DNA of 64,000 nt from a virus (taxonomy: Duplodnaviria; Caudoviricetes): IMG/VR virus record IMGVR_UViG_3300034053_000029, positions 128,001 to 192,000 of that record. One strand, 5' to 3'. Every line of letters starts with the position of its first letter. The stretch's first letter is position 1. The notes beneath the pieces were generated by a model. It searched no databases. It saw only the letters and a list, made by a program, of their open reading frames with translations, and was not told where the DNA came from. Positions 27,364 to 50,853 of this stretch are shown in pieces. The position numbers and the translations under genes are program-made.

Positions 27364-27433
27364 ATTAAAATTCCTTTCATCATGTTGTATCTTATATTTA
27401 TAAGAGTCACACTGTTAGAAAGGAATGTTTAAT
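27364..27433 (-). promoter_or_regulatory. RBS-sequestering hairpin enclosing a perfect late promoter TATAAATA (27395-27402)
   Basis: 15-bp inverted repeat with one bulge: 27364-27378 versus 27418-27433. Confidence 0.75.
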
Positions 27434-37185: not shown

Positions 37186-37527
37186 TCACTTGCAATATAT
37201 CTTGCGCTCCCATCGATCCTTACAATTTTCACCGGCACATGATTTGATTTCGTTCTTCAACCACTGCAAGTTTTCAATCTTATCACACCCACCACACGCT
37301 AACGGAATAACATGATCTATCGCCCAACCGAGGCAAGAACCCATCGCTTTACCTGTTGATGGGCAATGGTATAACTTCCTGAACTCAAATAAAACCTTGT
37401 TGTCTCGTTTTATCTTACCATCAACCGTTCTTTCTGGTGCCCCACATATTCTTGAATCTGCAGCATGATATGGATCAGGATGAGCAAGTGCAAGTGTTGG
37501 GAGTATCAATAGAAATAAGAATTTCAT
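37186..37527 (-). CDS. Signal-peptide-bearing small HNH nuclease-like protein
   Basis: MKFLFLLILPTLALA signal; CPSTG...C.GWAIDHVIPLACGGCD..ENLQWL; 8 Cys. Confidence 0.72.
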   Translation of the reverse strand: MKFLFLLILPTLALAHPDPYHAADSRICGAPERTVDGKIKRDNKVLFEFRKLYHCPSTGKAMGSCLGWAIDHVIPLACGGCDKIENLQWLKNEIKSCAGENCKDRWERKIYCK

Positions 37528-37823
37528 CTTAATGTTGGTGTTGTCGTTGCTGCATGAGTTGGTGGGCGGCGATCCATACGATCAAGTAACATTTCGATCA
37601 ATCTTTCTTGTCTTGCTTGTGACGCTTGGATCGATTGTGTTCTTTCATCAACTCGGTCACTTTGCGAACGAATCTGGACAATTTCTTTCTTAACTTCCGC
37701 ATTTGATTTGACTGCCTCTTCCAAAGACTGAATCTTGTATTGTGCTTGACCCCATGCTGCACTCATTGAAGATAAAGCAACGATGAGAAACCAATGTTTT
37801 TGGAGCCATTCAACCATTTTCAT
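37524..37823 (-). CDS. Single-TM coiled-coil membrane protein (holin/spanin-like)
   Basis: WFLIVALSSMSAAWG hydrophobic segment followed by a heptad-rich region. Confidence 0.6.
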   Translation of the reverse strand: MKMVEWLQKHWFLIVALSSMSAAWGQAQYKIQSLEEAVKSNAEVKKEIVQIRSQSDRVDERTQSIQASQARQERLIEMLLDRMDRRPPTHAATTTPTLR

Positions 37824-38383: not shown

Positions 38384-38940
38384 AATGTGTCCTTGCTCAA
38401 TATAATGTGCTTATCAGAATCAATATCGTCTTCAAAATATTTATCTAGATGATCATTCAAGTTGCTATGATCCAATTTCGTCAAAGATTTACCGTCATGA
38501 TAATAAACGTGGTGCCCATCATCGAGTGCTCGTTTAGTCAATCTCTTCCACATACCATGAGCAGAATCAGATTGAGTTTTATCTGTCTTTAGTGGTAAAT
38601 TTGACTGTTTAAAATGATCATAAATCACATTAGTTGCATGATGTTTAGGTAAATCGCCATGCTTTACTACACCAGTTTGTACTTCACATGGTATAGGACT
38701 ATGAGTCTTTTTTATTGAACAGTAGTGTAATGTTTCTTGTTTGTCATGATCTAAAGTATGATATTCTGTTGTTCCTTTATATTCATCTCTATGAACTTTA
38801 ACATTATGGGAAATGTGATTTATTATCGGAGAATCTTTTATAGCAACAAACATCTTTTTGCGTTCATGCTCTTGTTCTAATTGATTAGGCACATTTAACC
38901 TAAATGATTGTTCATTTAAATATTCTCTAAATGTTTTCAA
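38380..38940 (-). CDS. Putative internal head protein (TTG start, MKTFREYLNE); possible GNAT-like fold
   Basis: TTG at 38940 overlaps the upstream TGA (TTGA); capsid-targeting-like N-terminus; TDKTQSDSAHGMWKRL; about 19 His. Confidence 0.68.
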   Translation of the reverse strand: MKTFREYLNEQSFRLNVPNQLEQEHERKKMFVAIKDSPIINHISHNVKVHRDEYKGTTEYHTLDHDKQETLHYCSIKKTHSPIPCEVQTGVVKHGDLPKHHATNVIYDHFKQSNLPLKTDKTQSDSAHGMWKRLTKRALDDGHHVYYHDGKSLTKLDHSNLNDHLDKYFEDDIDSDKHIILSKDTL

Positions 38941-39422
38941 TCTTTTTCCACCCAATTCAATTGGCATCCTTTTTTTATCAGTGCCATAACTATGTTTGCA
39001 GGTATCGGTTCAGATTCAACCACACCACCTTTTTGTAATATCGAACTAACATACTCAGCACATTGCCACTCATCATTTTTACCAACAACGACTTTCTTGA
39101 AAAATGCTCGCAATGCTTCCATTCTTGAATATTTATTACCGACCAATGAAAGTGCATACTCTTCTAAATCAGCATGCCAATATTCATCTACGGGAATCCA
39201 ATAGAACGGAACCTCTTTACTCAAAGGGAATATTCTGATCTTTGGTGATACTGCTTCGAGAATGAATACTCTTCCTGCAATAACCCAAGCGATACCCACA
39301 TGAGTATATTCAGATCGAGTGAATATTCTGACCATTTGTGCTTCTAAGTGTTCCCAACTAGTATCCGTCCAAGCAAGAACGTCACCGGATTTGATTTTTG
39401 GGCGGGCGTCAGAGTATTTCAT
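38937..39422 (-). CDS. Permuted papain-like amidase (YiiX/YebB, permuted NlpC/P60)
   Basis: IKSGDVL, SEYTHVGIA (His first), ILEA, G.KYS, WQCAEYV (Cys last). Confidence 0.82.
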   Translation of the reverse strand: MKYSDARPKIKSGDVLAWTDTSWEHLEAQMVRIFTRSEYTHVGIAWVIAGRVFILEAVSPKIRIFPLSKEVPFYWIPVDEYWHADLEEYALSLVGNKYSRMEALRAFFKKVVVGKNDEWQCAEYVSSILQKGGVVESEPIPANIVMALIKKGCQLNWVEKD

Positions 39423-39955
39423 GGTAGTCTCGTACTTTTCATATGTGATTCCGTAAACATTGGGAACATTTTATTTTCTTTCAATGTTCTCTTTATTGTA
39501 GAGGTATGCATTTCATTTCCTCCAATATTTTCAAAATCATGATTTACATCATATCCATTGTGCTTACCAATTCTATCTATTATTGGCTTTAATTTTTTAT
39601 GTATGTCTGGTCGAGCAACTATCTTAATTGTTTTATCGCTATCGATTAAATCTTTTGCATAATGTAAAGCAGTTCCAATAAATTTTGGGTTTGGTGAAGA
39701 AAGTTTTGGTGGAGCATCTCCAGAAGAATTATCACTAGCTATATGATGAAGTTCGTGATAACCTTTTCGGATAGCATGAATCAAATGTCCATTATCGCCT
39801 TCTAACTTAAATACTTTAACCGCACCAAATTTATGATCTTTATATGCTTCATCATTATTGAAATGATGTCTAACCATTTCTTCCATGTCTGGATCATGTT
39901 CCATTTTCCATGGCTTATCAAATAACTCAAACAAATACTCTTTAAAGGTGTTCAT
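39419..39955 (-). CDS. Putative internal head protein with capsid-targeting sequence
   Basis: MNTFKEYLFE N-terminus; about 15 His in 178 aa. Confidence 0.68.
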   Translation of the reverse strand: MNTFKEYLFELFDKPWKMEHDPDMEEMVRHHFNNDEAYKDHKFGAVKVFKLEGDNGHLIHAIRKGYHELHHIASDNSSGDAPPKLSSPNPKFIGTALHYAKDLIDSDKTIKIVARPDIHKKLKPIIDRIGKHNGYDVNHDFENIGGNEMHTSTIKRTLKENKMFPMFTESHMKSTRLP

Positions 39956-40293
39956 TTCTTTTGTTCTTTTACCGGTTCTTTATGTGCATGATGAAACTCG
40001 ATATCCTTTTGTAGTTTCTCAATTCGCAAATATGCAATCTGCAATTCATGTTGAGTCTTCAAATCCTGCTGCTGATGCATGAATAGTAGAATGATTATAC
40101 CAATAATGGATAACCATGTAACAAACATACCCCATGTGAAGAATGTTTTTAACATTCCAAGTTGATTGATTATGTTATCATTTATCGTGTCAAAGATGCG
40201 AATCTTATCGATAACTCCACACTTGATGCAATGATCTTTTTCAACAATGCGTGGTCTGTGACGACGATCAACGGTGATAGTTTCGTTTTCCAT
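39952..40293 (-). CDS. Single-TM membrane protein (holin-like)
   Basis: DRR motif, CIKC, TM FFTWGMFVTWLSIIGIIILLFM, C-terminal coiled coil. Confidence 0.62.
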   Translation of the reverse strand: MENETITVDRRHRPRIVEKDHCIKCGVIDKIRIFDTINDNIINQLGMLKTFFTWGMFVTWLSIIGIIILLFMHQQQDLKTQHELQIAYLRIEKLQKDIEFHHAHKEPVKEQKK

Positions 40294-40295
40294 GA

Positions 40296-41366
40296 TTAAA
40301 ACCTATAAGTTAGTGTTAGGACATAAGTGTTCCATTTTTCACCTGATGAAATTGGGGATGTGTGTTTCTTCCATTCTCTACCTGATCCAATATGCCATTC
40401 TGCTGATATGGTAAATGAATCAATGAGTTTTGTCACACCAATATAGTTATCCTGATATGCTCTTGACGTTACCTTGTTGTTACCGTATGAACGACCAACG
40501 TATGCGAACCAACTATCCGTGATACATTTACCTACCATGTAATTATATCCAACGGAATCAATGGAAGCAGTTTGTCTCCCTGATGCACTAAATCCTTTGG
40601 TGATACCATGATACCATTCGACTTGGGCAACAAAATCATTCTCGTTAGCGTATTGAACCCCAATCTTGTTGATGTAGTATTCCATGTTGTCAATTGATCT
40701 GAATACTGCTTTTGCTATTGGAGAATTGTTATCTGCTTCTCCGGTCACTCTGTAATGATTTCTCGACACATACAAGTGCCAATTTTGCATTTCCATGTGA
40801 CCCGATATATCATAATTGTTTGATGTGCTGTTATGGGTGTAACCAGGAACCAATCGATTGAATGCTTCATAGTGAAGATCAGTTTGTCTAGGAATGTTCG
40901 CCTTACCGTATGACACTTTGGTTTTATAAAGAACGTGATCTGTCTTGAATGTCATTTCGTTCTTGATGCCATCCATCAATGTGAATGTGCCATTGAGCAT
41001 ACGGAATGAATAACCTGCAAATGGTAGGATTGCTTGACGATAATTAGCAGGTGAATCGGTGATGCCTTCGTAGAATGAATCCAAACGACTGAATCTACCA
41101 ACTTGAAATGTAGTTTCAATGCGCTCCGATAATGGAATCGAATATTCCAAAACTGCTCTTCTGATGGTTTGATCTTTGAATGTTGAGAGTTGAGTTCTCG
41201 CAGCAAAGGCACCGTTGAAGTAATCAACATTGACCGAAACTATCGTGCGAGGATCATGCCAATCGTGATCACCAAACTGAGTCGTATATGCAAATCCAGT
41301 AACACTTGTCTCTGCAAATGCTGACGTTATGAAGAATGAGAGTAAAAAGAGAATGTGTTTCATCAT
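40296..41366 (-). CDS. Outer-membrane beta-barrel (porin-like) protein
   Basis: Sec signal ending SAFA; alternating amphipathic strands; FQVGR; C-terminal beta-signal WNTYVLTLTYRF. Confidence 0.78.
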   Translation of the reverse strand: MMKHILFLLSFFITSAFAETSVTGFAYTTQFGDHDWHDPRTIVSVNVDYFNGAFAARTQLSTFKDQTIRRAVLEYSIPLSERIETTFQVGRFSRLDSFYEGITDSPANYRQAILPFAGYSFRMLNGTFTLMDGIKNEMTFKTDHVLYKTKVSYGKANIPRQTDLHYEAFNRLVPGYTHNSTSNNYDISGHMEMQNWHLYVSRNHYRVTGEADNNSPIAKAVFRSIDNMEYYINKIGVQYANENDFVAQVEWYHGITKGFSASGRQTASIDSVGYNYMVGKCITDSWFAYVGRSYGNNKVTSRAYQDNYIGVTKLIDSFTISAEWHIGSGREWKKHTSPISSGEKWNTYVLTLTYRF

Positions 41367-41836
41367 GGTGCTCCGTCATCGTAAATCTTGAATATTTCAA
41401 CCTCACCAGTATTGATGATCATTTGGTTTGAATCTAGATATCCAATTGCCCCAATCGTTTTTGCCACTTTTCTAACGACATCTGCTTGGTTCTCTGCTTT
41501 GATGAAATATGCAGCATTACCCTTGTTGATGTATGTAGAGACATTTCTCTCAAATCGTGATACGGAAACACCTAGCACTTTCTCACAAAATTCTTGGTGT
41601 TCCTTTGAATTGAAATCTTGATAGATCACCGTGATCTTCGTACCGTCATCCCAAAATCGTTTCTTCATAGTATACATCCAGAATACTTCCAATTTGGATA
41701 TTTGATGTGTGTGTTTAGGGATGATACTTTTGATGGGTGCGACTTCAGCAAACACTTTACCAGTAACCGGACCTACCATTGCGATAGATGCTCCGATGAG
41801 GAATGGCAACCAGAATTTTCTAAGGAATTTAATCAT
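41363..41836 (-). CDS. Small periplasmic binding-protein homologue (PstS-like type II PBP family)
   Basis: Signal peptide; ISKLEVFWMYTMKKRFWDDGTKITVI, HQEFCEKVLG, NQADVVRKVAKTIGAIGYLD. Confidence 0.75.
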   Translation of the reverse strand: MIKFLRKFWLPFLIGASIAMVGPVTGKVFAEVAPIKSIIPKHTHQISKLEVFWMYTMKKRFWDDGTKITVIYQDFNSKEHQEFCEKVLGVSVSRFERNVSTYINKGNAAYFIKAENQADVVRKVAKTIGAIGYLDSNQMIINTGEVEIFKIYDDGAP

Positions 41837-42477
41837 TTAGGTAAACTAACCTGTTTCAATGCTCTGACGTTGGTTTGAATCAGCTCCATCTGTCTTTCAT
41901 TCTCTGCAAAGCGATTATCCATCTTTTGTAGAGACACTTTCGTATCTGACATATGGGATTCTATGTCACTAAAATATTTGTAGAGGAAGTATTGGGCACC
42001 GGAACTGAATATGGCAAATGCAGCGAATATACCCTTGAAGAATGACACCCGACTATTGTAATCATCTTTCAGTGTTTTGAGTTTTTCGTTGGTGTCTTTG
42101 ATGAGGTCTTGAATCGACGTATTGGTTACTTTGGTTGTAACTTCATGCTCTTTGTCATAAGCATCAAAGTCCTTGTTAATTGCATCAATTCTCTCATGTA
42201 TGCGATCAACATTTTTCACTCTCTCAAGTTCGATCTTGTCAATTTTTGTTTCGACCAAAGCGATCTTTTTATCAAGAAGATCACCAAGAATGGATACCGA
42301 TCCTTCGACTTTTTTGATGTTCTCTGAGTTCTGACCTTGCTTCTCTTGAAGAACGGATACATTCTTCAATAAATCCATCAAGAGGTCTAGTTTTTTATCT
42401 TGCTCATTGAAACGCTTATTTGAGGTTTCAATAAATTGAGAGAGCATTCTCTCTAGCAGTTCGTCACTATTAGCCAT
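41833..42477 (-). CDS. Coiled-coil protein with one C-proximal TM segment (holin-like?)
   Basis: Long heptad region, then FFKGIFAAFAIFSSGAQYFLY, then a short coil; first gene after the late promoter. Confidence 0.65.
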   Translation of the reverse strand: MANSDELLERMLSQFIETSNKRFNEQDKKLDLLMDLLKNVSVLQEKQGQNSENIKKVEGSVSILGDLLDKKIALVETKIDKIELERVKNVDRIHERIDAINKDFDAYDKEHEVTTKVTNTSIQDLIKDTNEKLKTLKDDYNSRVSFFKGIFAAFAIFSSGAQYFLYKYFSDIESHMSDTKVSLQKMDNRFAENERQMELIQTNVRALKQVSLPK

Positions 42478-42515
42478 TTAATTCGTCCATGAAGTTGTCT
42501 TCATTATTATTCTTA

Positions 42516-42523
42516 TATTTATC
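42516..42523 (-). promoter_or_regulatory. Late promoter GATAAATA heading the envelope operon
   Basis: Intergenic; directly preceded by the inverted repeat TCAATAACT...AGTTATTGA. Confidence 0.6.
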
Positions 42524-42558: not shown

Positions 42559-43131
42559 TTATGGCTTAGTAATCTTCTTCCAGAATCCTGTTGGTGAAAA
42601 GACGAACATACATTTGCGATCTCTAGAAATATCGTTTCTGGACCAGAGTTTGTGTCCGAAGTTGAGCTTAGTGCAGTGAGTATCATTCCAATGATGATTG
42701 ATGTATAATTGCCATGCATAGTCACATCTAGCGAAGAACCACCCACCCATAGTTAAGTCACCAGAGATTAATCTAATGTCATTCTTGACAATCTCACCAT
42801 TGATCTTACGTCTTCCCCATACCTTAACTTCATCACCTTCTTTGTATTGGAACGCTAAAACATCCCAGTCAAAAGAATATGCAGGATTGCGAAAATACCA
42901 AAATACTCTATTGACATACCTTTGCCAACGTGTTATGTTATCCCCTCTATATGGGGCATGATGTTCTTTAAATGGTTCATCACCATCTGCGGTATTATCA
43001 GGAGTATCTAGATATTTTAACCATCGTGGAAGGTGTCCATTTTCTTGAACAAATAGCGCCCATATAGGAGAACCAAGACCACCAATAATAGCCATTATAA
43101 TATTTAATGGTAAATATAAAAACCAACGCAT
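42559..43131 (-). CDS. Conserved phage membrane-associated hypothetical protein
   Basis: Hydrophobic N-terminus, LPRWL..LDTPDN..DGD, W..RNPAY.F; GGAG RBS. Confidence 0.72.
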   Translation of the reverse strand: MRWFLYLPLNIIMAIIGGLGSPIWALFVQENGHLPRWLKYLDTPDNTADGDEPFKEHHAPYRGDNITRWQRYVNRVFWYFRNPAYSFDWDVLAFQYKEGDEVKVWGRRKINGEIVKNDIRLISGDLTMGGWFFARCDYAWQLYINHHWNDTHCTKLNFGHKLWSRNDISRDRKCMFVFSPTGFWKKITKP

Positions 43132-43151: not shown

Positions 43152-43760
43152 ATGTTAAAAGATGAAACTAATAATATTTATGGTAGATTGACTGTTATAT
43201 CAAGATCAGAAAACTATAAAGATGGAACTGCAATGTGGAATTGTTTGTGTTCATGTGGAAATACAACTACCCAAAAAGGAACATTTTTGCGAAGTGGTAC
43301 TGTAGTATCATGTGGATGTTACAATAATGATCTACATTCCACCCACAGAATGTCCAAATCTAAAGAATATAAAACTTGGCAAGGCATTAAAGAAAGATGT
43401 TGCAATGTTCATAGTGAGGATTATCTAAATTATGGAGCAAAAGGAATTACTGTGTGCGAAGAATGGAAAAATTCATTTGAAAAATTCTTAGAAGATATGG
43501 GATCAAGACCAACAGGATGTTCAATAGATAGAATAGATAATTCAAAAGGATATTATTTAGAAAATTGTCGTTGGGCAACTGCAAAAGAACAAGCTATTAA
43601 TAGATCATCAACACATTTTGTAACCATTAACGGCGTAACAAAAAGTTTAAGTGATTGGGGAAAATTTCTTGGTATGTCTCACGCTGCATTTAATAAAAGA
43701 TTATCAAAAACTAATGATCCAAATAAACTACTTGCACCAAAAGATTCCAGATTCATATGA
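43152..43760 (+). CDS. HNH homing endonuclease, inverted orientation
   Basis: YGRLTVI, WNCLCSCG, SCGC, EYKTWQGIKERC, YGAKGITVCEEW, SIDRIDN.KGY..ENCRWAT.KEQA.N; GAGGA RBS. Confidence 0.9.
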   Translation: MLKDETNNIYGRLTVISRSENYKDGTAMWNCLCSCGNTTTQKGTFLRSGTVVSCGCYNNDLHSTHRMSKSKEYKTWQGIKERCCNVHSEDYLNYGAKGITVCEEWKNSFEKFLEDMGSRPTGCSIDRIDNSKGYYLENCRWATAKEQAINRSSTHFVTINGVTKSLSDWGKFLGMSHAAFNKRLSKTNDPNKLLAPKDSRFI

Positions 43761-50845: not shown

Positions 50846-50853
50846 TATTTATA
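50846..50853 (-). promoter_or_regulatory. Late promoter TATAAATA
   Basis: Perfect consensus, intergenic, within the inverted repeat gtttgtat/atacaaac. Confidence 0.72.

Follow-up and report, generated by a model that had tools for sequence, protein, structure and literature searches.

What a tailed phage might gain from encoding an outer-membrane barrel next to a secreted binding-protein-like partner is the question raised by a four-gene cassette within a stretch of 64,000 nucleotides (nt) of Caudoviricetes DNA (hereafter the window), which covers bases 128001-192000 of the IMG/VR virus record IMGVR_UViG_3300034053_000029 (210,171 bp with direct terminal repeats). The cassette consists of genes A, B, C and D, which encode a coiled-coil-like membrane protein, a small binding-protein-like protein, a beta-barrel and a second membrane protein, respectively (coordinates are collected in Table 1). 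A preliminary description of the window had proposed that these genes install a trans-envelope channel or sensor late in infection. Our analysis points to a descent of the B-C pair from a bacterial envelope-signalling operon, and phages probably use the cassette to sense or let in something that lies outside the cell they infect. The bacterial kind of module has been named but is mechanistically obscure, and the phage form, which has a coiled-coil partner and no sensor, is a variant that we found described nowhere.

Proteins B and C and the bacterial module

Searches of Pfam, PHROGs and NCBIfam gave no significant match for any of the four proteins (the matches of A were coiled-coil noise), and sequence searches of the PDB with small phage alignments returned nothing useful. 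Protein C was modelled from six homologues as a 16-strand barrel (predicted local distance difference test score (pLDDT) 76, predicted template modelling score (pTM) 0.74), in which DSSP places a 36-residue loop at residues 94-129, between strands 5 and 6. This loop is the most conserved part of the family and occupies the position of the constriction loop of porins. The best structural matches of the model are porins, namely V. cholerae OmpT (E 2.6e-12), DcaP, Omp32, OmpF and OmpC, together with 'Porin' clusters of AFDB. C also carries an ordinary signal peptide of the Ala-X-Ala type without a lipobox and ends in Y-R-F, an aromatic end of the kind that is usual for barrels handled by the Bam machinery, and it resembles the classical porins (OmpF/OmpC/OmpT) in its 16 strands, long strand 5-6 loop and aromatic C-terminus. 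Thirty-seven residues are invariant across 10 phage copies. By sequence, C matched no porin family of Pfam or NCBIfam, and curated porin families gave marginal matches in only 2-4 of 21 bacterial relatives of C, Porin_O_P (a phosphate porin family) being weakly matched by four of the 21 (best E 7.1e-6). The 16-strand model, the porin matches, the signal peptide and the Y-R-F end all agree with the earlier suggestion of a barrel bearing a Bam signal, and C is predicted to be an outer-membrane beta-barrel of the 16-strand porin fold.

Protein B begins with a signal-peptide-like N-terminus, likewise of the ordinary Ala-X-Ala type and without a lipobox, whose cleavage after residue 30 (judged by eye) would leave a mature protein of ~127 amino acids (aa). 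Its model reaches a pLDDT of ~90 across residues 45-150, and the only matches retrieved by Foldseek were to proteins of the PstS type (best E 1.6e-3) and, in AFDB, to small proteins annotated 'PBP domain-containing', 120-200 aa in length (best E 4.3e-7). The TM-score normalised to the PstS-type targets was 0.17-0.32, and the cyanophage PstS structures 7xg8 and 7xg7 were among the weak matches (E 0.05-0.19). A 51-member profile of the B family aligns to lobe 2 of PDB 1twy (residues 104-217, E 7e-5), 11 of the 51 members match PF12849, and a profile search of 1.84 billion representatives assigned 763 representative clusters to the family at E<=1e-3, the nearest of them on phage-like contigs. B had been described earlier as a PstS-like binding protein with a signal peptide, and a PstS-type fold is indeed found in the predicted model, but it is that of one lobe, half of a periplasmic binding protein (PBP), and not of a whole one; we regard B as a putative secreted single lobe of a PstS-type PBP. 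Residues W62, H80, F83, L88, G106, G132 and Y133 are near-invariant in the family, and the S-G-T phosphate-binding stretch of 1twy faces variable residues and an invariant His. A simple phosphate-binding role for B was rejected on account of the single lobe and the missing binding motif. Genes for a pstCAB-type permease or ATPase are absent beside B in the window and in all phage and bacterial loci examined.

With a bacterial-looking B profile, at least 202 loci were detected in representative genomes, including those of Nitrosomonas, Methylomicrobium, Halomonas/Vreelandella, Shewanella, Alteromonas and Colwellia, and gene order was examined in 80 loci from Gamma- and Betaproteobacteria. In almost all of these 80 loci, B is followed by an open reading frame (ORF) of ~400 aa, which ends in S-Y-R-F or M-Y-W-F and often overlaps B by 32 nt, and then by a gene of 650-1080 aa. 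The third genes that were scanned all have GGDEF-EAL, GGDEF or histidine-kinase outputs (10 of 10), with dCache_3 matched by 9 of them, and B, barrel and sensor are arranged likewise on one metagenome contig. When phage C was aligned with the 21 bacterial barrels by hhalign, a probability of 98.2% (E 2.9e-14) was obtained over 347 columns, that is, over the full length. A second bacterial subfamily has the reverse order, a barrel ending in D-[AL]-V-F and then a small protein of 131-138 aa; it comprises more than 595 loci in representative genomes and is more distantly related to the phage proteins (probability 96.7%, E 4.7e-10 for B; 89.5%, E 1.9e-6 for C). In one gammaproteobacterial order, 118 of the 301 genomes sampled carried B-like genes, frequently more than one copy. 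Because the barrels are homologous over their full length and B is homologous as well, the phage B-C pair appears to descend from a bacterial envelope-signalling operon, minus its sensor enzyme. The preliminary description had mentioned a small-PBP/porin pair that stands beside sensors in proteobacterial operons, and the bacterial pairs do precede dCache_3 sensors with GGDEF-EAL or histidine-kinase outputs; its remark that no output domain is visible in the phage extends to the 210-kb genome, in which we detected no dCache_3, GGDEF or receiver domain. A cognate sensor that joins a ligand-binding domain in the periplasm to an enzymatic or chemotaxis output was found neither in the cassette nor in the phage loci examined, and an A-like gene was not found before the bacterial B-C pairs.

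Two further features of the bacterial loci were observed. The second subfamily (L099-L105, gammaproteobacterial) often lies beside a membrane protein of ~540 aa that is chemoreceptor-like by eye. In several loci of the Nitrosomonas type (L019, L027, L029, L042, L047, L055 and others), a conserved gene of ~262 aa with the N-terminus F-H-E-Y-F-E-I-V precedes the B-C-sensor operon, and its product may resemble the exosortase-associated acyltransferase family.

A named system of similar composition is VpvABC of V. cholerae (VC2456-VC2454), which consists of a porin, a periplasmic binding protein and a membrane cyclase (PMC12456836). In the published model, the porin VpvA admits an unknown signal that VpvB and VpvC detect; vpvAB pairs without vpvC occur in Shewanella, Alteromonas and others, and phages are not mentioned (PMC12456836). 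Elsewhere, VpvA and VpvB are described as hypothetical proteins of unknown function (PMC8754643). Compared by published description, VpvABC and the phage cassette have in common a small secreted binding-protein-like part and a porin-like barrel that are encoded side by side. The phage cassette differs from modules of this type in having no cyclase, phosphodiesterase, kinase or chemoreceptor partner, with the domain-less coiled-coil protein A instead, and its barrels form a deep lineage of their own.

The cassette in other phages

The order A-B-C is kept, with all ORFs intact, in at least 11 distinct uncultured phage contigs whose neighbouring genes differ (Table 1); metagenomic homologues number five for C (38-46% identity) and four for B (54-74%). 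First pattern scans, with the phage B alignment against genome contigs and with the phage C alignment against IMG/VR, had found no relatives. In GenBank phages (50,697 records), blastn and tblastn found no match for the region, B, C or one distant phage barrel, and a search of sequencing runs recovered small parts of the stretch in two freshwater metagenome DNA runs only.

Protein A has a coiled-coil-like N-terminal part of ~145 aa, a hydrophobic helix at ~146-169 and a C-terminal tail of 45 aa, and is likely to be a bitopic inner-membrane protein of N-in/C-out topology, with the coiled coil in the cytoplasm and the tail in the periplasm. In each of the phage loci examined, the gene immediately upstream of B encodes an A-like protein of this build, and the closest three share 34-41% identity and have the tail motif Q-K-x-[DE]-N-R-F in common. 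The survey of synteny that the preliminary description had recommended therefore shows the B-C pair co-conserved with an upstream membrane-protein gene throughout these loci, with intact ORFs and no pseudogenisation. An Atlas search with A returned unnamed clusters and generic coiled coils only. Protein D combines a basic N-terminus of 49 aa, a helix at ~50-72 and a coiled-coil-like tail of 41 aa, and is likewise a putative bitopic membrane protein (N-in/C-out). Counterparts at the same position were found in L002 (131 aa) and L003 (121 aa), at 20-31% identity, and not in L006, L008, L009 or L091-L093. Thus, the picture of two membrane proteins flanking the pair holds for the window phage and two relatives, but elsewhere A alone is general, and D would be at most an accessory part.

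A tree of 38 barrels unites the 13 phage copies in a single group (support 100/100), which is separated from the 25 bacterial copies by a branch of ~4 changes per site and is deeply split internally. Recent capture from a host was rejected in view of this long, well-supported branch. The conserved A-B-C order, the intact ORFs and the single deep group of phage barrels indicate that the cassette is old and phage-specific and has long been retained under selection. In one locus (L008), the B-C pair is present twice in tandem, and because its two barrels are each other's closest relatives in the tree, a duplication inside the phage is indicated.

Phage genes for outer-membrane barrels are rare. 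The PA-2 porin Lc, the porin NmpC and lambda Lom are outer-membrane barrels of phages or prophages that have a signal peptide and a C-terminal aromatic signal, features that they share with C. Lc and NmpC are near copies of host OmpC-type porins in temperate phages, whereas C, which has no sequence match to a porin family, is a member of a barrel family linked to signalling and is always accompanied by B and A. No direct account of a dCache system coupled to a porin, or of a phage porin, emerged from literature searches, and we found no report of a binding-protein/porin signalling pair in a phage. Because at least 11 divergent uncultured phages retain an intact cassette, it is likely to confer a real advantage in the envelope of the infected cell.

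Possible functions of the cassette

We tentatively favour, at somewhat less than even odds, a reading of the cassette as an envelope-spanning module of channel, adaptor and transducer in which A replaces the sensor. If ancestry is a guide, B and C should act jointly and communicate across the periplasm with a partner in the inner membrane. Because A is the one gene always inherited with B-C, this partner can in phages presumably only be A, whose conserved periplasmic tail would be the natural contact point. The bacterial ancestor would have encoded a secreted one-lobe PstS-like protein, a porin-like barrel and a dCache_3 sensor driving a cyclic di-GMP (c-di-GMP) enzyme or a histidine kinase; phages would have kept B and C and swapped the sensor for the bitopic coiled-coil protein A, and the source phage would have added D. 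In this scheme, for which we infer the localisation, all contacts, the ligand and the output, C would be inserted into the host outer membrane by the Bam machinery and form a specific channel, with the strand 5-6 loop in the constriction-loop position, and B, secreted to the periplasm, would dock on C or bind what C admits. The short periplasmic tails of A and D would read the state of B, and the long cytoplasmic coiled coil of A would relay this state to a phage or host target, most plausibly one that governs a late choice, for example the moment of lysis or the response to additional phage or to the surroundings.

An output in the form of a late-infection decision is suggested because the cassette is presumably co-transcribed with structural genes and because lysis genes lie beside it in two phages (L091 and L092). 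The kind of output thought most plausible is that of T4 lysis inhibition (RI, RIII and the holin T), in which a secreted periplasmic protein reports an outside event to a bitopic membrane protein that controls lysis. T4 lysis inhibition differs in having no outer-membrane component and shows no sequence or family similarity to the cassette. In its strongest form, that is, a self-contained trans-envelope sensory device of phages of Gram-negative hosts that reads an outside chemical cue and sets a late decision such as lysis timing, the proposal is unlikely; if true, phage sensing would gain a new class with no relation to T4 lysis inhibition or to peptide signalling of the arbitrium type, and an output in lysis timing or in the response to superinfection would amount to a new kind of phage decision circuit. 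The reduction in phages to a barrel, half a binding protein and a minimal membrane partner points to the B-C pair as the functional unit and suggests that the signal can pass through a very short periplasmic contact. The phage cassette may thus offer a handle on the bacterial module, including the ligand and mechanism of VpvABC.

Stimulation of dCache-type sensors by binding proteins is an established mechanism, and a review of binding-protein-dependent sensors contains no porin-coupled or half-protein system (PMC8050422). Shewanella PdeB came into consideration as a possible characterised sensor of the bacterial family, but the published account does not describe its gene neighbourhood. In LuxP/LuxQ, NspS/MbaA, ScrB/ScrC, HptA/HptS and PstS/CtpL, a periplasmic binding protein reports its ligand to the periplasmic part of a membrane protein (PMC8050422), which is what we propose for the action of B on A and D. 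These systems differ in having full two-lobe binding proteins, no dedicated outer-membrane barrel, and enzymatic or chemotaxis outputs, whereas in the phage cassette B is a half protein and the membrane partner would expose only a 45-aa tail to the periplasm.

Several observations weigh against the channel-adaptor-transducer reading. Protein A has no recognisable signalling domain in family searches or in the Atlas search, and in distant phages its identity falls to 14-22%, so that its build rather than its sequence is conserved; D is limited to the window phage, L002 and L003 and is missing from most phage copies. The loop of C is modelled at a pLDDT of only 34-46, so the channel remains predicted. 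A contact prediction for B and C gave a score of 0.37 against 0.00 for the best control, with at least 78% contact agreement between runs and a partner pLDDT of at least 74. This passes the calibration mark, which solved complexes reached in 58 of 80 cases and mismatched pairs in 2 of 110, but a pass of 0.60 or less is wrong more often than right unless the pair was already likely; the predicted contact thus lends weak support. The sequencing-run search detected the cassette in no RNA run, and the neighbours of the cassette hint at other roles: several phages have tail-fibre genes there, and others have lysis genes or PhoH. The trans-envelope channel or sensor of the preliminary description accordingly fares unevenly: the ancestry fits, with B and C homologous to partners of dCache_3 sensors, but the B-C contact has weak support and the channel is a prediction.

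Among the alternatives, nutrient uptake has the most to commend it but is still quite unlikely. Here C would be a substrate-specific channel and B a binding protein that together raise the import of a limiting solute (a phosphate-like anion would be a guess), with A and D anchoring or assembling them, in the manner of cyanophage PstS. The only structural relatives of B are indeed phosphate-binding proteins, including cyanophage PstS 7xg8 and 7xg7, Porin_O_P is weakly matched by four of the 21 bacterial barrels, and a PhoH-like gene lies just downstream in L091 and, by resemblance, also in L092. However, PstS needs two lobes to enclose phosphate and B has one, of ~110 aa, in whose family the S-G-T stretch is not kept; the bacterial relatives stand beside sensors and not beside ATP-binding cassette (ABC) permeases, no permease or ATPase is encoded in or beside the phage cassette, and the phage barrels match no porin family by sequence. 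The strict co-conservation of A would also be left unexplained. Cyanophage PstS (P-SSM2 and Syn19; PDB 7xg8 and 7xg7) is similar in being a phage-encoded periplasmic protein of PstS fold, but it binds phosphate as a complete protein of two lobes and supplies the PstCAB transporter of the host, whereas B is a single lobe without the conserved phosphate-binding motif and is linked with a barrel and a membrane protein of the coiled-coil kind.

It is also possible, though distinctly improbable, that the barrel, B and A serve superinfection exclusion or receptor masking, altering or occupying the route of incoming phages or shielding progeny from receptors on debris. Genes for exclusion or receptor blocking (T5 llp, cor and lambda lom) are often found near tail-fibre genes, and in several unrelated phages the cassette adjoins genes for tail fibres or receptor binding: within the window it lies upstream of a DUF4376 tail-fibre gene and of the gene for a 2492-aa protein, L006/L007 have DUF4376 and DUF7483 genes beside it, its neighbours in the P0012 contig and in L009 include Mtd_N proteins, and in L092 there are large genes directly upstream of it. 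Gene position alone is weak evidence, though; family searches showed no similarity to known exclusion proteins, we know of no exclusion system that uses a porin-fold barrel with a binding-protein lobe, which also counts against this explanation, and the bacterial ancestry points to signalling.

Very unlikely is a hijack of a host dCache_3 sensor of the Vpv type, in which phage B and C would act as agonist or decoy and reset c-di-GMP or two-component signalling. Such a role would suit their homology to partners of dCache_3 sensors, the lack of a sensor of the phage's own in the dCache_3, GGDEF and receiver searches, and the frequency of the module in the gammaproteobacterial order mentioned above (118 of 301 genomes). 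However, a very long branch parts the phage barrels from all sampled bacterial ones, with no sign of matching to a host partner, and the constant co-inheritance of A suggests a self-contained system.

Least probable is that the cassette is lysis machinery, a spanin-like or holin-associated complex spanning the envelope and helping to breach the outer membrane: in L091 it comes after genes for a short coiled-coil protein, a lipoprotein-like protein (lipobox by eye) and a multi-helix membrane protein and after an endolysin-like fragment, in L092 it precedes a membrane protein and a Peptidase_M15_4 endolysin, A and D are predicted bitopic coiled-coil proteins, and a phrog_1128 papain-like gene lies close downstream in the window and in L009, but L091 seems to own a spanin-like pair for which the cassette would be no substitute, neither B nor C has the lipobox of the outer-membrane subunit of two-component spanins, the bulk of A is probably cytoplasmic, and the SLT-domain gene of the source phage is ~95 kb from the cassette. 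As for the inner-membrane subunit of spanins, which has an N-terminal helix and a long periplasmic coiled coil, D has a helix and a 41-aa tail after an N-terminal part of 49 aa, whereas most of the coiled coil of A precedes its helix.

Gene order, promoter-like motif and neighbouring genes

About 90% of the genes of the source phage are on the minus strand. The ORFs, strand, coordinates and overlaps of A-D agree with the earlier account of four coupled or tightly packed genes (4-nt ATGA overlaps at A/B and B/C, and a gap of 2 nt at C/D), but the chain runs beyond D, with proteins of 178, 161, 195, 104, 78, 99, 113 and 210 aa and then one of 2492 aa. At least eight more genes after D overlap or nearly so and reach the tail-fibre genes, the last genes of the run being tail-fibre-like (DUF4376 and tail PHROGs). 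Because overlapping or nearly overlapping genes continue past D into these tail-fibre-like genes, A-D are the head of a longer run of structural genes and not a closed operon.

The motif upstream of A has the core ATAAATA, which 25 of the 92 upstream intergenic regions in the 210-kb genome contain (1.5 expected), usually at a distance of 20-40 nt from the start codon, and which precedes several large structural genes in the window. Because of this enrichment, the site is a real recurring motif of the phage and a candidate promoter core. The core occurs alike at early-looking plus-strand genes and at structural minus-strand genes, the exact T4 late consensus TATAAATA has three occurrences in the window, which is not above chance, and scans for sigma-70 promoters and terminators were at chance level. 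The site had been called a late promoter; it stands as a recurring phage motif, but the 'late' timing would follow only from its likeness to the T4 late promoter.

Table 1. Positions of the cassette genes, promoter-like motifs, related phage loci and neighbouring genes (numbers without a contig or locus name refer to the window)
Feature	Position	Strand	Description
Gene A	41833-42477	-	214-aa ORF
Gene B	41363-41836	-	157-aa ORF
Gene C	40296-41366	-	356-aa ORF
Gene D	39952-40293	-	113-aa ORF
Promoter-like motif GATAAATA	42516-42523	-	38 nt ahead of the start codon of A, within an 81-nt gap; heptamer ATAAATA at 42516-42522
Further ATAAATA example	27395-27402		heptamer scan of the whole genome
Further ATAAATA example	50846-50853		heptamer scan of the whole genome
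Phage locus L002	359-kb contig		order 211/151/396/131 aa
Phage loci L003-L005			order 209/149/362/121 aa
Phage locus on P0012 contig			A-like gene, B and C in a row; beside Laminin_G and Mtd_N proteins
Phage loci L006/L007			A-like gene, B and C in a row; between tail-fibre genes (DUF4376 and DUF7483 beside) and terminase
Phage locus L008	L008:5971-9040		B-C pair twice in tandem after one A-like gene
Phage locus L009			A-like gene, B and C in a row; beside a 1365-aa Mtd_N protein
Phage loci L091-L093			three further loci from IMG/VR (broader barrel alignment scan)
Contig of closest relative			one further A-B-C locus
Genes after L091 barrel	L091:3800-4840		barrel gene, directly after it a receiver-domain protein without other domains (stand-alone; PF00072, E 9.8e-12), then a PhoH-like ATPase
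Genes after barrel of L092, related to L091	L092:9047-10610		membrane protein, Peptidase_M15_4 endolysin and PhoH-like gene (judged by N-terminal resemblance to the L091 protein)
DUF7338 / phrog_2143 gene	42559-43131	-	directly upstream of the cassette; E 5e-32; N-terminal membrane helix
Single plus-strand ORF	43152-43760	+	202 aa, amid minus-strand genes
phrog_1128 gene	38937-39422	-	161 aa, two genes downstream of D; E 1.3e-11
phrog_1128 gene of L009	L009:8716-9135		139 aa, two genes downstream of the L009 barrel; E 3.2e-29
Overlapping gene pair	37186-37823	-	99-aa protein (N-terminal helix and coiled coil) overlapping a 113-aa signal-peptide protein
SLT-domain gene	G000:C1:74228-74872 (L094:1429-2073)	-	outside the window; 214 aa; E 3e-19; hydrophobic N-terminal segment

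Several neighbouring genes deserve mention. At the position matching the DUF7338 / phrog_2143 gene, the contig of the closest relative has a gene of 178 aa, and the nearby plus-strand ORF resembles an insert of the homing-endonuclease type by eye. The phrog_1128 proteins of the window and L009 share 25% pairwise identity (E 0.004), and both have a His ... Cys order with a permuted papain-like (NlpC/P60-type) look by eye; the PHROG label of this family, 'enoyl-CoA hydratase-like', seems doubtful. The overlapping 99-aa and 113-aa genes have a spanin-like layout without a lipobox, and the 113-aa protein gave weak HNH-motif matches (PF14279, E 8.5e-4), although a secreted HNH-like protein would be odd. 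The SLT-domain protein, the sole recognisable muralytic enzyme of the source phage among the four families searched, is possibly a signal-anchor-release endolysin.

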